Below, piece after piece: positions 15,821 to 29,473 of a DNA stretch of 64,000 bases. The DNA is from Candidatus Aenigmatarchaeota archaeon (lineage in GTDB: Archaea > Aenigmatarchaeota > Aenigmatarchaeia > QMZP01 > QMZT01). The DNA is taken from contig JAZDFI010000007.1 in the NCBI GenBank assembly GCA_043808015.1, forward strand, positions 930 to 64,929, written 5' to 3'. A model generated the notes under the pieces. It had not been told where the DNA came from, did no database searches, and saw only the letters and a list, made by a program, of their open reading frames with translations. Both the position numbers and the translations under genes were made by a program. Numbering within the stretch: position 1 is the stretch's first letter; each line of letters starts with the position of its first letter.

Positions 15821-16345
15821 TTATGTGCTGGGGCATTCCCCGTGGCTCCACAGGGTTATGTTATTGCTCGCGCAGGCCGAACAATCGTTTCCGTATGTTA
15901 CGCCGTTGTCTCCGCACACAGGTAAGTATTCCATTGTACATGCCTCCGCGGCTTTCTCTTCATCCGTGCAGATGTGCCTGTAAGGAGGGCATTCTCCCCT
16001 GAAATAAGTCCATTCCTCGCACGCAAAGCCGTCCTCAAAAGTGCACATGCCGCTCTGGCTGCCATCCTCGGCAGTCACGATTTCAAGCTTTCCGCCGTTG
16101 TTGATGCAGTTCACAGAAGCGGGGTTCGCTATCTGCACGCTGTCGCCATTGCTGCAGTTCTCTTCCCATGCGCGGATGCATTTCTGCTCTGCGTCGCACC
16201 AGCTGTATCCCGCCGCGATAAGGCAGCCGTGCTCGTCCTTGTCACCGCCTATTATCTGATCATTTGCCGTCACGCAGCCGGCGACACCGACGGTTATTAT
16301 TATCAGTATCATGAACAGCCCGTAAACAGGAGTTTTCCTTTCCAT
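15821..16345 (-). CDS. Secreted lipoprotein-like protein with DUF333-like and Kazal-type inhibitor domains
   Basis: Signal/TM then GC (lipobox-like). NPASVNCINNGG...CTFEDGFACEEWTYFRGEC (DUF333-like). CTMEYLPVCGDNGVTYGNDCSACASNNITLWSHGEC is a canonical Kazal C-x-PVCG-x-DG-x-TY-x-N-x-C pattern. Confidence 0.6.
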   Translation of the reverse strand: MERKTPVYGLFMILIIITVGVAGCVTANDQIIGGDKDEHGCLIAAGYSWCDAEQKCIRAWEENCSNGDSVQIANPASVNCINNGGKLEIVTAEDGSQSGMCTFEDGFACEEWTYFRGECPPYRHICTDEEKAAEACTMEYLPVCGDNGVTYGNDCSACASNNITLWSHGECPST

Positions 16346-16439
16346 AATAATAATCAGCCGAGCCGTCTTATAAACCGGCCGCTTTTTGTGCGGCAAAAAC
16401 CGAAAATCTTTTTTAAATTATGAACAACAAAACTAGTCC

Positions 16440-21511: not shown

Positions 21512-22081
21512 TCAGAACTTCACTTCCACGTCGCGCTTCTCGGCTTCCGTCGCCTTGAAAAGTTCTTCAGGCGTGTAGCCCAGCATGCCCGCGACGAATC
21601 TATCAGGGATTGACTGTATGCGGATGTTGTACGTATTGACGGAATCGTTGTAGAATTCGCGTCGGTCAGCGAGCTCGTTCTCGATGCCGCTTATCCTCGT
21701 CTGGAGCTGTGCGAAGTTCTCGTTCGCCTTGAGGTTCGGGTAGTTCTCCGCGACCGCGAATATCGTCTTTAGCGCGCCTGATATGATGCCGTCCGCCTTC
21801 GCTTTCTCGGGCAGAGTCTTCGCGTTCATGAACTCCGTGCGCGCTTTCGTCAGTTCGGTAAGCGTGCCGCGCTCGTGTTTCATGTACCCTTTGACGGATT
21901 CGATAAGCTTCGGCAGCTCGTCGACCCTCTGCTTCAATAAGACTTCGATGTTCGAGAGCGATTTCTTTATGTTGTTCTTCAGGCGCACCAGCCCGTTGAA
22001 AACGGAAACCACATAGAAAACAATGACTAGAGCTACAAGACCGAGCACGACCATGATTATCAATTCAAGACCGAAAGCCAT
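21512..22081 (-). CDS. lemA: LemA family protein
   Basis: N-terminal TM plus conserved LemA core (NYPNLKANENFAQLQ...ENELADRREFYNDSVN..YN). Confidence 0.85.
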   Translation of the reverse strand: MAFGLELIIMVVLGLVALVIVFYVVSVFNGLVRLKNNIKKSLSNIEVLLKQRVDELPKLIESVKGYMKHERGTLTELTKARTEFMNAKTLPEKAKADGIISGALKTIFAVAENYPNLKANENFAQLQTRISGIENELADRREFYNDSVNTYNIRIQSIPDRFVAGMLGYTPEELFKATEAEKRDVEVKF

Positions 22082-22150
22082 ACGGCATCACCATCCTTGT
22101 GTTATATTATTGCAGATATATTTTAAGCTTTTGGCCGCGTTTAAACATAT

Positions 22151-22981
22151 CTACAGAAAACCTGTCTGGAAGAAAATGACGAAAAGCCCGATGGCGACGA
22201 GCGCTATGCCGCCGAAAATGCCGCCCAGCGACTTCCATCTCAGGCTCGATACGATGTCCTTCTCCTGCTTGTCCGATATGTAATAGAACTTGTCGTTTTT
22301 GCCTTTCTGTATCATGACGTCGTCCACGCTGTTCTTCGCCGTGAGTTCGTCCACGAACGGGTTGTCGCCAGCGGTGCCCATTATGTAGAGCTTGTCTTTC
22401 GGGGCTACGTAGTATTCCCGGTATCTCATGGTCTTGTTGAGGCCGAAGAAACTCTCGTGGCTGACGCCCTGGCTTTTGAGGAAATTGGTGACCTGCAACG
22501 GCGGATCCCTGCCGAAGCCCGAACTATATTCCGCGTCCTTGGGTATGTCCACTTTCGCGCCGTCCGGGTCGACCAGAACGAGAGCAGTCTCGTCCTTCAG
22601 GAAGAACTGCGTCCTCTCCTCGCCCTTGCGCACGACCGCCCACGAGCCGTTCGTGGCGAAGCCGGATGGATTCTCGCCCATGACTATGCCGCCGGGTATG
22701 CCCGGCATCCCGCCGCCCTTGCCTTTTCTCTGCTCCTCTATAGTGTATCTGTAATATACGCAGTCGTTTTCAGTGAACGGGCTTTTCAGAATTCGCCCTT
22801 TCGCCGCCACGACCTCGCCATAAATTTCGACGAGGCCCATCGCTAGCGAGCGAATCTTCGAAGTCGGCGTGTTGTCCATGAGCTGCTTCTGCCTGAACCA
22901 CTTCAGGCCAAGGATAAAAAGCACGAGCCCTCCTACAAGCCCTGCCAGTGCATAAAAGAAAACGTCCCCTTCGAGCGCCAT
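22151..22981 (-). CDS. Membrane protein flanked by TM helices, GIDE-like (common LemA partner)
   Basis: TM at both ends with about 200-aa soluble core. Immediately upstream of LemA on the same strand. Confidence 0.4.
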   Translation of the reverse strand: MALEGDVFFYALAGLVGGLVLFILGLKWFRQKQLMDNTPTSKIRSLAMGLVEIYGEVVAAKGRILKSPFTENDCVYYRYTIEEQRKGKGGGMPGIPGGIVMGENPSGFATNGSWAVVRKGEERTQFFLKDETALVLVDPDGAKVDIPKDAEYSSGFGRDPPLQVTNFLKSQGVSHESFFGLNKTMRYREYYVAPKDKLYIMGTAGDNPFVDELTAKNSVDDVMIQKGKNDKFYYISDKQEKDIVSSLRWKSLGGIFGGIALVAIGLFVIFFQTGFL

Positions 22982-23161
22982 GATTATCTTATTGGGCCTT
23001 TATTTAAAAAACGAGACAATTAGAGAATATGGTGGACGCGGACGATGGCAGGATTGAATTCTTCGAGAGCAAAAAGCGCAAGAAATACAAGGCCGTTTAC
23101 ATGAAAAAAGTTAAATACAGAAAAACTCCAATAGGTTAAATGCCGGTTTCATGGTGTCGCA

Positions 23162-23758
23162 ATGAATAACATGCTGAGTCCGTTCGATTTCACGAGGCAG
23201 GAGATAAAGGAGATACTGATATCGCTGGTCGTGCTGGCCTTCGTTTTCGCCTATCCGGAAATCCTGACTAACCCGATATTCATCCTCACGTCGCTTCTCG
23301 GAGTCGGCATAGCCTTCTTCGGCCACGAGATGGCACATCGCTACGTGGCGAGGAAGAGGGGCTTCTATTCGGCATACAAGATGTGGCCACAGGGCCTGCT
23401 GCTGGCGCTGGTCATGGCATTCGCGACCAACGGCAACATGGTCTTCGCCGCGCCGGGTGCTGTCATCTTCGCGGGCTACTGGATGTTCAGGAACCCGACC
23501 ATCGAGGACATAGGCATAATAGGCATCGCTGGCGTCGTGTTCAACCTCACCGTCATGTATTTTTCGCTGTCGCTTTACTTCTGGACCGGCTTCCCGCTGT
23601 TCTCGTTCATCGGGACCATCAATGGATGGCTGGCGATATTCAACCTCATCCCTTTCGGGCCGCTTGACGGCAAAAAAGTGATGGACTGGAACTTGAAAAT
23701 CTGGCTCGCGGCGCTGGCTCTGGCTATCACGGGCTTTGCGGCACTGCTTTTCTTCTAG
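23162..23758 (+). CDS. M50-family (site-2 protease-like) zinc metalloprotease
   Basis: HEMAH (HExxH) within TM helix and NLIPFGPLDG (LDG motif) in a later TM helix. Confidence 0.8.
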   Translation: MNNMLSPFDFTRQEIKEILISLVVLAFVFAYPEILTNPIFILTSLLGVGIAFFGHEMAHRYVARKRGFYSAYKMWPQGLLLALVMAFATNGNMVFAAPGAVIFAGYWMFRNPTIEDIGIIGIAGVVFNLTVMYFSLSLYFWTGFPLFSFIGTINGWLAIFNLIPFGPLDGKKVMDWNLKIWLAALALAITGFAALLFF

Positions 23759-24155
23759 AAACGGCTGGCTTGTAAGGCGAGTCTCTCAACAATATCTCCA
23801 CGCCGCCTTCTTCGTGCATGGCTATGGGAAGTATGGTTTTCCCTCGGCGGTTGGCCTTCATTTCAATGGCGAAAAGTTCCACGCTTGTCAGGTCGTCCAG
23901 AACAAAAACTTCCTCCATGCACAGGCCGGCTTTCTTCAGGCCTTCCAGCATATAACCCGGCATCTGTGAAATCCCGTCTTCTCCGCCGGGAACCGTTATT
24001 GTCATCGTGTTTCCTTTGACGGAAACGCCATAGCCGTGGTTCTTGCGCAGGTCGCCTGCCATTAAGTTTATCATATAGACGTTAAGCTCCTCCGGCTTAA
24101 GCGCGGAATAATCCATGGGCAGGCTTGCCCTGTAGAAGGTTTTGAGCGCCTTCAT
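23727..24155 (-). CDS. Hypothetical protein
   Basis: 142 aa ORF. 3' end overlaps the M50 gene by about 30 nt. Confidence 0.35.
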   Translation of the reverse strand: MKALKTFYRASLPMDYSALKPEELNVYMINLMAGDLRKNHGYGVSVKGNTMTITVPGGEDGISQMPGYMLEGLKKAGLCMEEVFVLDDLTSVELFAIEMKANRRGKTILPIAMHEEGGVEILLRDSPYKPAVSRRKAVPQSP

Positions 24156-24210
24156 GCTAAAATCTTCGCTGCAAGCTTTTAATCATTTATTAGGGTTCAA
24201 CTAATTAGGA

Positions 24211-24816
24211 ATGATGAGACATATTTTTTTCGCGGCCGCTGTTATAGTGGTTGTTGTATTTGCCAGCGGCTGCGTCGGCAGAGGCGTCAAGGATTTCAAC
24301 GAGACGACTGAATACGAATACTATAACAGGACGCTCGACGGTTTGGGCAATTCCACCAACGGCTCGCAGATATCCGTATCGAAAGACTTCACCTTCAAAA
24401 TAAACGGCGACGGCGTGTTCTGGCTCAAAGCGAATGATACTATCGGGTTCGACGTCGTCTTCAACAACGTCGCGGACAATCAAGAGGCGCACATGTTCGT
24501 CGCCAGAGTCTTCCCGTCCGCCGCGGATTTCGACGTGATGGCGGCTTACCAGTGCCTGCACTTCACGACGTGCGACTCGCTCCTCACCCGCATGCGGGTG
24601 ATGATTGACCAACCGGAGAACTCGACGCTCGTTAGTTACGGCTACATAGACCTTTACTCCATAAACATACGCGTCCCCGACGGCACGCCTGCCGGGACGT
24701 ACATGTACAACGTCGTCGCCTGCAAGGACATGCGCTTCGGCGAATGCCTGGAAAACACGACTAATTTCGGCCCCAACGTGCCGATAACGTTACATATTCT
24801 TAAGCCCGATGCATAA
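24211..24816 (+). CDS. Secreted protein with signal peptide/lipobox-like ASGC and many N-x-S/T sequons
   Basis: Hydrophobic N-terminus, Cys after signal. 9 N-glycosylation sequons. Confidence 0.45.
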   Translation: MMRHIFFAAAVIVVVVFASGCVGRGVKDFNETTEYEYYNRTLDGLGNSTNGSQISVSKDFTFKINGDGVFWLKANDTIGFDVVFNNVADNQEAHMFVARVFPSAADFDVMAAYQCLHFTTCDSLLTRMRVMIDQPENSTLVSYGYIDLYSINIRVPDGTPAGTYMYNVVACKDMRFGECLENTTNFGPNVPITLHILKPDA

Positions 24817-24944
24817 TCTTTATATACCAGTTAATGTATAAGATTATACATTATAGTATCAAACATTATCATCAAAATATGATAGTCATTCACTGAGAGC
24901 GCTTAACATTCAAAGCAGATAACTGGAAATTAACGTGACCGGAT

Positions 24945-25172
24945 ATGAAACGAGACCCGCTGGAAATAATGAGGGAGATACTGACGCTCCTTGAAAAGCA
25001 AGGGAACGCGGCGATGAGCCTCAACGCCATATCGGAGAAAACCGGGATTCACAACGTGACCGTGCGGCGCTACGTCGAGATAATCCAGCTGGTCAGGGAC
25101 GAGCCGGAAATCGAGGTCATCAGGACGGGCCATTCGATCATAGTCAGGATAAGAAAGGAGAAGAGAGAATGA
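24945..25172 (+). CDS. Small winged-helix DNA-binding protein (75 aa)
   Basis: HTH-like segment MSLNAISEKTGIHNVTVRRYVE then beta-hairpin wing. AT-rich promoter region upstream. Confidence 0.55.
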   Translation: MKRDPLEIMREILTLLEKQGNAAMSLNAISEKTGIHNVTVRRYVEIIQLVRDEPEIEVIRTGHSIIVRIRKEKRE

Positions 25173-25393
25173 TGCAATTGTTCGGAGGTAGTGTTATGAG
25201 AACGTTTGAGATTTTTGGTTTAGAGGCCGTGACTGGAGACAGACCGGAGAGGCCGTTCCCGCTCAGGCCCGGAACCGGGTTCGACAAGTTCCCGGTGCAG
25301 GACGCTGACCAGCTGTTATATACTATTGCAGCTAGCGCGTCCACTGCGTTTAATGATGTTTCAGGCATTCAGGGAATGCCTTATGGAGGGTGA
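25169..25393 (+). CDS. Small protein (74 aa) ending in Gly-Gly, translationally coupled between the wHTH gene and cdc48
   Basis: ATGA overlap with upstream stop. SD-like aggagaagagag. Its stop lies 5 nt before the cdc48 ATG. C-terminus ...GMPYGG*. Confidence 0.4.
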   Translation: MMQLFGGSVMRTFEIFGLEAVTGDRPERPFPLRPGTGFDKFPVQDADQLLYTIAASASTAFNDVSGIQGMPYGG

Positions 25394-25398
25394 TTTTC

Positions 25399-27822
25399 AT
25401 GGCAGAGAAAGACATATCGTTGAGAGTGGGAGAGCTGACTGACAGGAGCGAATCCGGCATGAGTATGGTAAGGCTGGAATCCAAGATGATGACCGAGCTC
25501 GGCATACGCGAGGGCGACGTCATCGAGCTCCAGGGCAAGAAGAAGACCGGAGCTATCGCCGTGCGCGCGTATCCGGCAGACATCGGACTGGGACTCGTGC
25601 GCATGGACGGCATAACCAGAACGAACATCGGCGTCGGCGTGGGAGAAACGGTCAAAATCGCGAAAGCGGACGTCAAAGAGGCGAAGAAAGTCGTCATCGC
25701 GCCAGCGCAGAAAGACGAAGTGCTGGAAATATCACAGGGCGTCGCCGACCTGCTCAGGCAGAACCTTATGGGCAGGCCGCTGATGAAAGGCGACGTGATA
25801 TCGCCGTCTCCCGCATCGAGAGGCAGGCCGAGGCAGCAGCAATCATTCGGCAACGACGACATGGATCCTTTTTTCGACATTTTCAGGAGCATGGGCATAA
25901 ACATCCAGGGAGGCGACTTCACGCCTTTCATCCCCATGCAGAGCGAGACGCGTTTGGCGATAGTTGCGACGCAGCCGGAGGGCAGCATAGTCAAGATAGC
26001 TCCGACGACGCAGATAGAGCTGCGCAAGGAAGCGGTTGATATCGACGCAGCTGGCAGGGTACCTACGATCACGTACGAGGACATAGGCGGCCTGCACGAC
26101 ATGCTGGTCAAGATAAGGGAAATGGTCGAGCTGCCGCTGCGCCATCCGGAGCTTTTCGTACGCCTGGGCATCGACCCGCCGAAAGGCGTTTTGCTCTACG
26201 GCCCGCCGGGAACCGGTAAAACATTGCTGGCGAAAGCCGTCGCTAACGAAAGCGGCGCGAACTTCTACTCCATCGCCGGTCCGGAAATAATGAGCAAGTG
26301 GTACGGCCAGACGGAAGAGAACCTGCGCAAGCTTTTCGAGGAAGCGCAGAAAAACGCGCCGTCGATAGTTTTCATAGACGAGATTGACGCCATAGCTCCT
26401 AAGAGGGAAGATGTGACAGGCGAGGTGGAGAAGCGTACGGTATCGCAACTGCTTGCGCTCATGGACGGCCTGAAGGCGCGCGGAAAAGTCATAGTCATCG
26501 CCGCGACCAACATGCCCAATTCGCTCGACCCCGCCCTCAGGAGGCCCGGGCGTTTCGACCGTGAAATCGAGATCGGAGTTCCGGACACAAGAGGACGCAA
26601 GGAAATTCTGCAAATACACACGAGAAACATGCCGCTCGAGCCCGACGTAGACCTGGACTTCCTTGCAGGCAGGACATACGGCTTTGTCGGCGCCGATTTG
26701 GAAGCGCTCGCCAAGGAAGCGGCTATGTCCGCGCTGAAGCGCCTTCTCCCCCAGATAACCTGGAGGAAAGAGGAGGAAATCCCGCAGGACGTGCTCAAGA
26801 AGCTGAAGGTCGGCAAGAAGGATTTCGATAACGGCCTTAAGATGGTCGAGCCGTCCGGCATGCGCGAAGTGATGATAGAGATTCCCAACGTTAAATGGAA
26901 CGACATCGGAGGCCTCGAAGGAGTGAAGCAGTCGCTGAAAGAGATAATCGAGTGGCCGCTCAAAAATCCAGAGGTCTTCACGAACATCGGCGTTTCGCCG
27001 CCGAAGGGAATCCTTCTTTACGGCCCGCCGGGAACCGGTAAAACATTGCTGGCGAAAGCCGTCGCCAGCGAGAGCGGCGCGAACTTCATATCGGTGCGCG
27101 GACCCGAGGTCCTTAGCAAATGGGTCGGCGAGAGCGAGAAGCACATACGCGAGATATTCAAGAGGGCGAAACAGGTCGCGCCGAGCATCATCTTCTTCGA
27201 CGAGATGGACGCGCTCGTGCCGCGAAGGGGGACGGACATGGGCACGCGCGTGGCAGAGAACGTGGTGTCGCAGATCCTCACCCACATGTCCGGCGTGGAA
27301 GAGATGCACAACGTCGTAGTCATCGGTGCGACGAACAGGCCGGACATACTCGACCCCGCGCTGCTGCGGCCAGGCCGCTTCGACAGGCAGGTGCTCGTGC
27401 CGGCTCCGGACGAGAAATCGAGGCTCGAGGTGCTCAAGATACACACCAAAAAAATGAAGATGAAGGACGTCGACCTGAAGAAGTTCGCGAAACTGACGGA
27501 CGGTTATTCAGGCGCTGACCTTGAGGCGCTCGTCAGAGAGGCCGGCATAAACGCCATAAGGGAGATAATGGCGAAGGAGAAGCCAGTCGAAACTGCTGTC
27601 AAAACGGCCAAGACCAAGAAAGCGAAAACCGAGAAGCCCGCCGATAATAAGGAAGAATACTTCGTGACCAAAAAGCATTTCGACGAGGCGCTGAAGAATT
27701 CGCGGCCTTCGATAACGCCCGACATGCTACGCTACTACGAGAAGATAATCGAGAGCTTCAGGAGCAGGGGCATGGAGATGAAGAAAGGCAGCAAAAAAGA
27801 GGACACCGACTATCTCGAGTAG
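25399..27822 (+). CDS. cdc48: Cdc48/VCP-like AAA+ ATPase (two AAA domains)
   Basis: N-domain plus two Walker A sites ([15 protein letters not shown] x2), Walker B DEIDA/DEMDA, SRH regions. Start at ATG 25399 (track 25390 is GTG). Confidence 0.95.
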
Positions 27823-27893
27823 CCGCTGTCAGCGAAAACTCTGGTTACAGAAGGGGAAATTGGTTTTTAAAATTCCCCGCTTAATTATTTAAC

Positions 27894-28729: not shown

Positions 28730-29107
28730 TTAAGCCTGAACGGCGTGTCCTTCAAGCTTCCTTTTTATGTCGTCGACGAGCTTCTTCGAGTCTCCCACCT
28801 CTTCGATGGCGATGCTCGAGGTGCCGACTTCAAGGCCCGCGGCCTTGCCAAGTTCGAGTTTAGAAGGCACTTCAACGCAAAGAACTTTCTTCTCGTTGCA
28901 AATCACGGGAAGGTGCATTACGACTTCTTCTGGCGTCACATCCGTCGCGAGTATGACCATCTTGGCCATGCCGCGCTCTATGCACTTTGTCGTCTCATTG
29001 ACGCCTTTTCTCAGTTTGCCCGTGCTGCTTGCAGCTTCTATCGCTTCGTAAATCTTGTCCGTAAGATCCTTGGATATCTCGATTTTCACGAATTTTGCCA
29101 TATTCAT
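28730..29107 (-). CDS. rpl7ae: Ribosomal protein L7Ae (K-turn binding)
   Basis: GKLRKGVNETTKCIERGMAKMVILATDVTPEEVVMHLPVICNEKKV is the L7Ae/L30e/Nhp2 core. Start may be 29101 (MAKF). Confidence 0.9.
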   Translation of the reverse strand: MNMAKFVKIEISKDLTDKIYEAIEAASSTGKLRKGVNETTKCIERGMAKMVILATDVTPEEVVMHLPVICNEKKVLCVEVPSKLELGKAAGLEVGTSSIAIEEVGDSKKLVDDIKRKLEGHAVQA

Positions 29108-29287
29108 CCCTCCTCGCTGCCCGCTTTCTTCGACAGACGGCTTGGATTTAAGTCCCAGGCCGTCATACGCCAGCGAACAACTCAGTCATATATTAATACA
29201 CTAATTAATGCTGTATTGTATTTAAATATATCGCCCTACAATTATTGTAAATCACCGGTTAGCGTTACCGGACCAGAGAGGATAAAT

Positions 29288-29473
29288 ATGAAAAGCGAAA
29301 CCAGCGCGGATTCAATGAAATGCTCAAGCTGCGGCGTCAGGATAGAGAACCAGAAGAACTGGGTCCAGTTCGAGTGCCCCGGCTGCGGCAAGGCGAAGAT
29401 AATAAGGTGCGAGAAGTGCAGGAGCCTCATGAACGTTTACGAGTGCTCGAACTGCAGTTTCAGGGGCCCTTAA
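29288..29473 (+). CDS. Zinc-ribbon protein (61 aa), conserved partner of EF-1beta
   Basis: Three CxxC pairs (CSSCG, CPGCG, CEKC...CSNC). GAGG SD 6 nt upstream. Confidence 0.6.
   Translation: MKSETSADSMKCSSCGVRIENQKNWVQFECPGCGKAKIIRCEKCRSLMNVYECSNCSFRGP

Follow-up and report, generated by a model that had tools for sequence, protein, structure and literature searches.

We analysed a 64-kb stretch of Aenigmatarchaeota (DPANN) DNA, hereafter the window, which carries within positions 24819-27878 an operon where a small open reading frame (ORF) lies between a gene for a winged helix-turn-helix (wHTH) protein and the gene for the unfoldase Cdc48. The three ORFs are tightly packed on the plus strand: the wHTH gene, encoding a putative autoregulator of 75 aa, spans 24945-25172, the small ORF spans 25169-25393 and cdc48, encoding 807 aa, spans 25399-27822. 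This three-gene layout had been proposed in a preliminary description of the same DNA, and all three ORFs, together with the ATGA overlap of the wHTH stop and the small-ORF start (25169-25172), are as proposed. Reading of the sequence likewise bore out the C-terminus ...QGMPYGG and the 5-nt gap before the cdc48 ATG: the small ORF ends in ...GIQGMPYGG-TGA with its stop TGA at 25391-25393, followed by TTTTC (25394-25398) and the cdc48 ATG at 25399. We took this ATG as the start of cdc48; a GTG upstream of it, at 25390, is the mechanical start in the ORF listing. The Shine-Dalgarno (SD) sequence assigned to cdc48 had to be corrected. The stretch named for it, aggagaagagag (25156-25167), lies before the ATG of the small ORF itself, and the cdc48 SD is GGAGGG at 25385-25390.

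Translation of the small ORF may begin at either of two positions. From ATG 25169 the product has 74 aa; here an SD-like AGGAG (25156-25160) within the 3' end of the wHTH gene and the ATGA overlap form a junction at 25156-25172 on the plus strand, read from the sequence and from the in-frame ATG in relatives. A second in-frame start, ATG 25196, is preceded by its own SD, GGAGGT at 25184-25189, gives a product of 65 aa and is the choice of the NCBI annotators (P0001, 65 aa). The five closest loci keep both: their first in-frame ATG is at -4 to +1 nt of the wHTH stop, and the internal SD with its ATG is present. The small ORF of the main clade of relatives begins 1-6 nt past the wHTH stop, and every related locus has an in-frame ATG within -4 to +6 nt of that stop. 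It is plausible that 25169 serves as the coupled start and 25196 as the independent one.

The identity of the two flanking proteins was assessed via profile searches and, for the wHTH protein, a structure model. Cdc48 scored 1067.9 bits against TIGR01243 (cutoff 802.65), which places it among the CDC48 family AAA ATPases, and its Pfam domains are CDC48_N, CDC48_2 and two AAA domains. Its orthologues in Aenigmatarchaeota are 62-96% identical. The wHTH protein matched HTH_11 at 25.0 bits, exactly the Pfam cutoff, and its AlphaFold2 (AF2) model (mean predicted local distance difference test, pLDDT, of 87) consists of helices at residues 5-19, 26-33 and 37-52 followed by strands at 56-60 and 65-69. 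The Foldseek neighbours of the model were winged helices (ScpB, ArsR, BirA; probability ~1.0, TM ~0.5). As predicted by this confident model, the product of the first ORF is a winged helix. Its homologues formed 35 clusters, all from Aenigmatarchaeota and 59-100% identical; mean column identity was 71%, the ratio of nonsynonymous to synonymous proportions (pN/pS) was 0.13, and the recognition helix HN-TVRRY was invariant among the aligned relatives.

The wHTH gene was found directly upstream of cdc48 in 16 loci of the genome collection (tblastn) and on six further contigs. In 21 of 23 wHTH-cdc48 loci the interval is occupied by a positional homologue of the small ORF, 29-93 aa long and bearing the family motif [KR]-x-R-P-(F)-P-L-x-P-[EG]-P. 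Conservation in frame upstream of cdc48, on which the preliminary description had made its reading of the small ORF depend, was therefore found in 21 of the 23. The window copy of the motif, RPERPFPLRPG (residues 25-35, codons at 25241-25273 on the plus strand), includes P31, L32 and P34, which are nearly invariant in the alignment of the family. The consensus of the larger clade is MKxxILKMFGKYRKRPLxPEPKLExKQTNLKDFNIxxxNNNxxxNVMExLDVDxISLERGDVYDEEE, and the members P0074-P0076 (RERPFPIGPQP, KERPVPLGPEP) bridge it and the subclade of the window. Only members of 54-70 aa were returned when 5.8 billion proteins were searched by profile and 1.84 billion representatives exhaustively with HMMER; all the named ones were from Aenigmatarchaeota and all were labelled 'hypothetical'. 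The microprotein had no relative in Pfam, NCBIfam (E<=1) or the PDB, and the family profile gave noise only against PDB sequences and Pfam. As far as these searches reach, the microprotein family is confined to one Aenigmatarchaeota clade.

Size alone does not make the small ORF significant, as 69 ORFs of at least 40 aa occur in 9 kb of the window; it stands above chance because it is conserved in relatives. In both subclades all of its indels are multiples of three, and substitutions are about two-fold enriched at third codon positions. Pairwise ratios of nonsynonymous to synonymous rates (dN/dS) were 0.2-0.6, and pN/pS was 0.30-0.48 in each of five segments, beyond the motif too. The flanking wHTH and cdc48 genes had pN/pS of 0.10-0.16 at similar synonymous divergence; the small ORF evolves 3-4 times faster than these neighbours. 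Fast evolution is typical of disordered microproteins. Since the P-L-x-P codons vary synonymously (3, 5 and 4 synonymous codons at the motif positions across 19 loci), the constraint acts on amino acids and not on a DNA or RNA element, and an Rfam search of 24700-25500 yielded no known RNA family. Judged by these signatures, the small ORF is a genuine, protein-coding, fast-evolving gene under purifying selection. We rejected as extremely improbable the reading of the region as non-coding, a spacer or a 5' leader of cdc48 whose frame is open by chance. ORFs of this size are indeed common by chance in the window, the small ORF has no family annotation, and the spacer at the same place in locus L088 is non-coding; yet an amino-acid motif kept through synonymous codon changes, indels in multiples of three with a third-position excess, pN/pS below 0.5, a frame open in 21 loci and the Rfam search without a match all speak against such a spacer.

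The microprotein was modelled with AF2 from a 34-sequence alignment, which gave a pLDDT of 54, a predicted TM-score (pTM) of 0.20, no strands and one helix at residues 46-57. The model thus predicts a largely disordered protein, and the preliminary description was right to see no beta-grasp pattern in it. The low AF2 confidence is in keeping with disorder; a compact beta-grasp usually predicts well.

The Gly-Gly terminus, which had led the preliminary description to consider the SAMP modifiers, proved to have another origin. In the window TAT-GGA-GGG-TGA is read as Tyr-Gly-Gly-stop, and GGAGGG(TGA) is the cdc48 SD read in frame, 8 nt before the ATG. All 21 loci have this SD (GGAGGGTGA, GAGGTGGT or GGGGTGAT) equally far from the cdc48 start, and since the small ORF crosses it in varying frames the terminal Gly-Gly is incidental. 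The small ORF ends in ...GG in the window and in L001, L081 and L084, whereas L002, the next-closest genome with nearly identical nucleotides, reads ...MEGDFYGR. The Gly-Gly of L086 (...MEGDFYGG) comes from an overlap with the cdc48 codons ATG-GCG-GAT. The main clade ends in ...ERGDVYDEEE, loci L012, L023 and L035 in ...ERWFL or ...ERWCS, and L013 in ...EKR. A terminal Gly-Gly occurs only in P0001-P0004, the four closest clusters (PYGG/PCGG), and in L086; some 50 other members are without it. On this comparison, the Gly-Gly end results from the cdc48 SD and is no family trait. A Gly-Gly or G-rich C-terminus at the SD of the next gene is expected by construction and should not be taken for a ubiquitin-like signature.

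These endings bear directly on whether the microprotein could be a SAMP/Urm1- or Pup-like modifier whose Gly-Gly is activated and conjugated to substrates destined for Cdc48 or the proteasome. The gene does sit directly upstream of an AAA+ unfoldase, PYGG/PCGG is kept in the four closest clusters and L086 ends in YGG, and a size of 65-74 aa with predicted disorder resembles what is known of Pup. We nevertheless regard a modifier as highly improbable: its Gly-Gly is encoded by the cdc48 SD, the same nucleotides are read by L002 with a terminal Arg, about 50 family members end in DEEE, KR, WFL, LL and similar, and no beta-strands are predicted. Profiles for ubiquitin, ThiS/MoaD, Urm1 and Pup had no match among 34 family members at E<=10. 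Among 47 ORFs scanned, which cover part of the window, itself a fraction of the genome, there were no E1, ThiS or JAMM proteins and no PafA/Dop was seen.

Compared with the known modifiers, the microprotein shares with SAMPs and Urm1 its small size, the C-terminal Gly-Gly (in the window copy) and a tie to AAA+/proteasome function. SAMPs and Urm1 have a beta-grasp fold, in contrast to the microprotein, which is without a profile match, owes its Gly-Gly to the SD and is not accompanied by an E1 among the ORFs scanned. Pup of Actinobacteria is similar in being disordered, about 60-70 aa long and encoded beside AAA+/proteasome-system genes. It differs in its GGQ/GGE terminus and in its phylum, and the microprotein has no Pup profile match and a variable C-terminus. 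The fold, C-terminus and profile matches that define these families were looked for and are absent, which places the microprotein outside both SAMP/Urm1 and Pup.

Transcription signals were sought upstream of the wHTH gene. The putative TATA box of the operon promoter, TTTATATA, lies at 24819-24826 on the plus strand, directly after the stop of the upstream gene (24814-24816), and aligns to a conserved block, (C)TTTA(A/T)ATA, that is kept in 18 of 20 aligned loci and missing in L087 and L088. A perfect palindrome, TAATGTATAA-GA-TTATACATTA (24832-24853), with 10-nt arms that are 100% complementary, begins 6 nt past the TATA box, where it would span the expected start of transcription. The palindrome occurs once in the window, against 0.06 expected by chance, and the palindromic block is kept in all 20 aligned loci, at Cdc48 identities down to ~63%. 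Archaeal repressor operators are usually found just downstream of the TATA box. The palindrome is thus a candidate operator to which the wHTH protein would bind, and autorepression is the natural inference from its position. A metagenome scan for a regulon with the palindrome pattern was discarded as too unspecific: it hit at least 120 unrelated AT-rich loci, and none among the matches listed had the wHTH gene or the small ORF. At the other end of the operon, a hairpin GGGGAA...TTCCCC around a T5 tract (27853-27878, plus strand), recognized by reading of the sequence, is the likely end of the transcription unit; archaeal transcription termination occurs at oligo-T tracts.

The second junction of the operon holds two elements on the plus strand. 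An RNA hairpin, AGGCAUUC-AGG-GAAUGCCU (25363-25381), encodes GIQGMP and is present only in the window and its three closest relatives. The cdc48 ribosome-binding region (25382-25401), delimited from the sequence and from RNA folding, contains the SD that is read as Gly73-Gly74. In the same four loci a weak predicted stem pairs the cdc48 SD with the AUG and leaves the small-ORF stop in the loop; the folding z-score for 25340-25430 was -2.95. Across the family, 19 of 21 loci have the stop of the small ORF between -20 and +16 nt relative to the start of cdc48, and in L003/L085 the small ORF stops 102 nt before cdc48. Coupling by termination-reinitiation requires that genes overlap by 4 or 1 nt or be less than about 20 nt apart, and subunits of heteromeric complexes are over-represented among pairs of this kind (Huber et al., PMC6728339, PMC10666635). 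The operon resembles such pairs in its ATGA overlap, in the spacing of its second junction and in the SD inside the upstream ORF, although termination-reinitiation is a generic mechanism that defines no functional family and the coupling here is read from geometry. The preliminary description had called the three genes a translationally coupled unit; with junctions in the reinitiation range, they probably do form a compact, conserved and coupled unit.

Two further elements at or near the second junction were considered. The small ORF contains TATA-like AT-rich stretches, CTTAAAGATTTTAATATAA in the main clade (L006-L010) and TTATATAC in the window (25316-25323), and within each subclade the AT-rich stretches (window 25313-25327; L006-L010) show no synonymous change. 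An embedded cdc48 promoter is unproven: the invariant codons are also the preferred AT-rich ones, and the element is not common to both clades. A programmed frameshift fusing the microprotein to Cdc48 was rejected, as there is no slippery heptamer at the junction.

Given this geometry, the small ORF might act as a coupling leader similar to an upstream ORF, in which translation itself matters and the product does not: ribosomes would melt the SD-AUG hairpin or reinitiate and so set Cdc48 output. In a variant, the proline-rich motif could slow elongation and make the coupling dependent on conditions. In 19 of 21 loci the small-ORF stop does keep in step with the cdc48 start regardless of frame and C-terminal sequence, the predicted hairpin has that stop in its loop, ORF length (29-93 aa) and C-terminus vary widely, and the ORF evolves faster than its neighbours. 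Other features argue against it, and we consider this explanation, although the main rival of the one favoured below, rather unlikely. Purifying selection extends across all five segments and is not limited to a single arrest motif, with the blocks KQTNLKDFN and NVMExLDVD conserved outside the proline motif; the motif lies anywhere from ~15 to ~65 codons before the stop; the ORF of L003/L085 ends 102 nt before cdc48; most members are without a PP or PPP stalling run; and cdc48 has a strong SD of its own. An arrest peptide would show constraint on the motif at a fixed distance, and here all segments are constrained and the distance varies.

The first junction raises the alternative that the microprotein works with the wHTH protein, and not with Cdc48, as a co-repressor, anti-repressor or sentinel substrate; it would alter operator binding, and its turnover by Cdc48 or the proteasome would report proteolytic load. 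In every locus the start of the microprotein overlaps or adjoins the wHTH stop, the microprotein is found only where the wHTH gene occurs, and overlapping pairs are enriched for heteromeric complexes (PMC10666635). Peptide binding also has a precedent: the structures closest to the wHTH model are winged helices of ScpB that were solved with a partner peptide bound. On the other side, the wHTH protein is unchanged in L088 and L015, which lack the microprotein, and it is highly conserved (mean column identity as given above) while the microprotein is not, so that tight co-evolution is not evident. We consider this partnership with the wHTH protein unlikely.

The explanation that we favour, with moderate confidence, is that the wHTH-microprotein-cdc48 operon has a real, lineage-specific and largely disordered microprotein as its middle cistron, which is a probable modulator of the circuit. 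Transcription would start from the conserved TATA box, and a wHTH dimer would repress its own operon via the palindrome over the expected start site. The three cistrons would then be read by termination-reinitiation or by local SD-driven initiation. Because the stops and starts overlap, abut or fall near the cdc48 SD and AUG, microprotein output would be tied to Cdc48 output, and the microprotein would be made in fixed proportion to its neighbours. Its Gly-Gly is an accident of gene packing, GGA-GGG-TGA being the cdc48 SD in the microprotein frame, and its functional part would be the basic proline-rich motif with a few downstream acidic and hydrophobic positions. The motif conforms to [KR]xxPxxP, a generic pattern of polyproline II (PPII) ligands. 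The microprotein may act as a stoichiometric modulator, either as an adaptor or regulator docked on Cdc48 or as a partner tuning the wHTH repressor, and by its place in the operon would work as McsA/McsB do in the ctsR-mcsA-mcsB-clpC operon. We infer that it is most likely disordered and modulates, or serves as adaptor in, a proteostasis circuit of the wHTH protein and Cdc48; an adaptor or regulator had been the fallback suggestion of the preliminary description.

Several observations weigh against this explanation. The case for homology between the window subclade and the main clade draws on synteny, ORF length, the short motif and the bridging members P0074-P0076, with no strong pairwise score. 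L088 has the wHTH gene and cdc48 with a 122-nt non-coding spacer between them, and the microprotein is dispensable there; in L015 the slot holds an unrelated 127-aa ORF in its place. The member from L005 (P0017) has lost the proline motif. Finally, no feature discernible in the Cdc48 N domain correlated with the presence of the microprotein.

A bolder form of the favoured explanation makes the microprotein the first dedicated cofactor of an archaeal Cdc48, with the polyproline motif docking on the N domain or delivering the wHTH repressor. We regard it as speculative and distinctly unlikely. We know of no report of a dedicated substrate adaptor for archaeal Cdc48. If the proposal were true, the operon would be a self-contained repressor-adaptor-unfoldase feedback loop in one operon of a genome-reduced DPANN archaeon.

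The Cdc48 protein of the window has an insertion of ~25-45 aa in CDC48_2 (residues ~137-185; 25800-25960) that is common to DPANN Cdc48s and missing from a Methanomassiliicoccaceae homologue. A link between this insertion in the N domain and the presence of the microprotein was considered and rejected, since the insertion is general in DPANN. The Cdc48 C-terminus is ...EDTDYLE and does not look HbYX-like.

The slot before cdc48 varied in content beyond the microprotein family. The spacer of L088 (3232-3353) holds an inverted repeat, TTACCTTG...CAAGGTAA. The ORF of L015 (L015:3537-3920) is acidic, ends in ...EEFPDEDQNYFG before its stop, has no Pfam match and is found with the wHTH gene kept. 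More distant Aenigmatarchaeota lack the wHTH gene altogether; among loci without it, a conserved ORF of 110-122 aa lies directly upstream of cdc48 (L016:3646-3993, L017:3650-3982, L019:3621-3971, L021:227-577 and L022:3601-3969). This ORF is uncharacterised and has the pattern ..AVLISFD..ERN+FF.ELYG..Q... Yet another ORF, of 135 aa, is found upstream of cdc48 in L025 and L026. The upstream ORFs of L016, L017, L022, L025 and L026 had no significant Pfam match, L016 alone giving a sub-threshold hit to DUF3303. The slot before cdc48 may be a hot spot of lineage-specific Cdc48-associated small proteins.

Gene order around the operon is conserved as well. In the window (21512-24816) and in L081 and L085-L088, genes for LemA, a GIDE-domain protein, a 34-36-aa ORF, an M50-like peptidase and two uncharacterised proteins precede the wHTH gene, the small ORF and cdc48. 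After cdc48 come a 130-aa membrane protein and then the L24e/S28e/L7Ae genes on the other strand. Farther along, an HVO_2753-like zinc-finger microprotein (29288-29473; PF07754, 59.6 bits) adjoins an EF-1beta-like gene; the mechanical ORF that contains it (28745-29473) is mostly antisense to L7Ae and spurious. Elsewhere in the window, an ORF at 15821-16396 has DUF333 and a Kazal-type serine protease inhibitor domain, the latter unusual for an archaeon.

We compared the operon with known circuits of similar design. In Bacillus and other Firmicutes, the ctsR-mcsA-mcsB-clpC operon encodes a winged-helix autorepressor, small modulators and a double-ring AAA+ unfoldase, and its operator overlaps the promoter. 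This is the closest architectural analogue, with autorepressor, modulators and unfoldase in one operon. There is no kinship of sequence or fold: the modulators of the Firmicutes operon are a zinc-finger activator and an arginine kinase and its unfoldase is ClpC, whereas here the modulator is a disordered proline-motif protein of ~65 aa, the unfoldase is Cdc48 and the circuit is a predicted one.

Among archaea, the heat-shock regulators Phr of Pyrococcus and HSR1 of Archaeoglobus control an AAA+ ATPase gene and also target a small heat-shock protein gene (PMC10653856). They are the closest archaeal analogue, combining a wHTH regulator with the gene for a Cdc48-type AAA+ ATPase. In contrast, the wHTH protein here is a bare winged helix of 75 aa without detectable similarity to Phr, and no hsp20 gene follows cdc48. 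No chain of Phr, a protein of about 200 aa, appeared in the PDB sequence search (E<=10) or among the top 50 Foldseek hits. The Archaeoglobus regulator gene presumably lies directly upstream of the ATPase gene, in the order HSR1-cdc48-hsp20, and we know of no middle microprotein in the Phr/HSR1 operons. The operon of the window has no homology to the ctsR operon or to the Phr/HSR1 systems; it contains a new microprotein family of narrow distribution and is itself a well-defined, probably autoregulated cdc48 operon.

As far as we are aware, the control of Cdc48 expression outside the Phr-containing Euryarchaeota is poorly known. The operon offers a compact candidate circuit in which the regulator, the operator, the microprotein and the unfoldase are all defined to the nucleotide, and its reconstitution in vitro would be feasible without culturing the organism.

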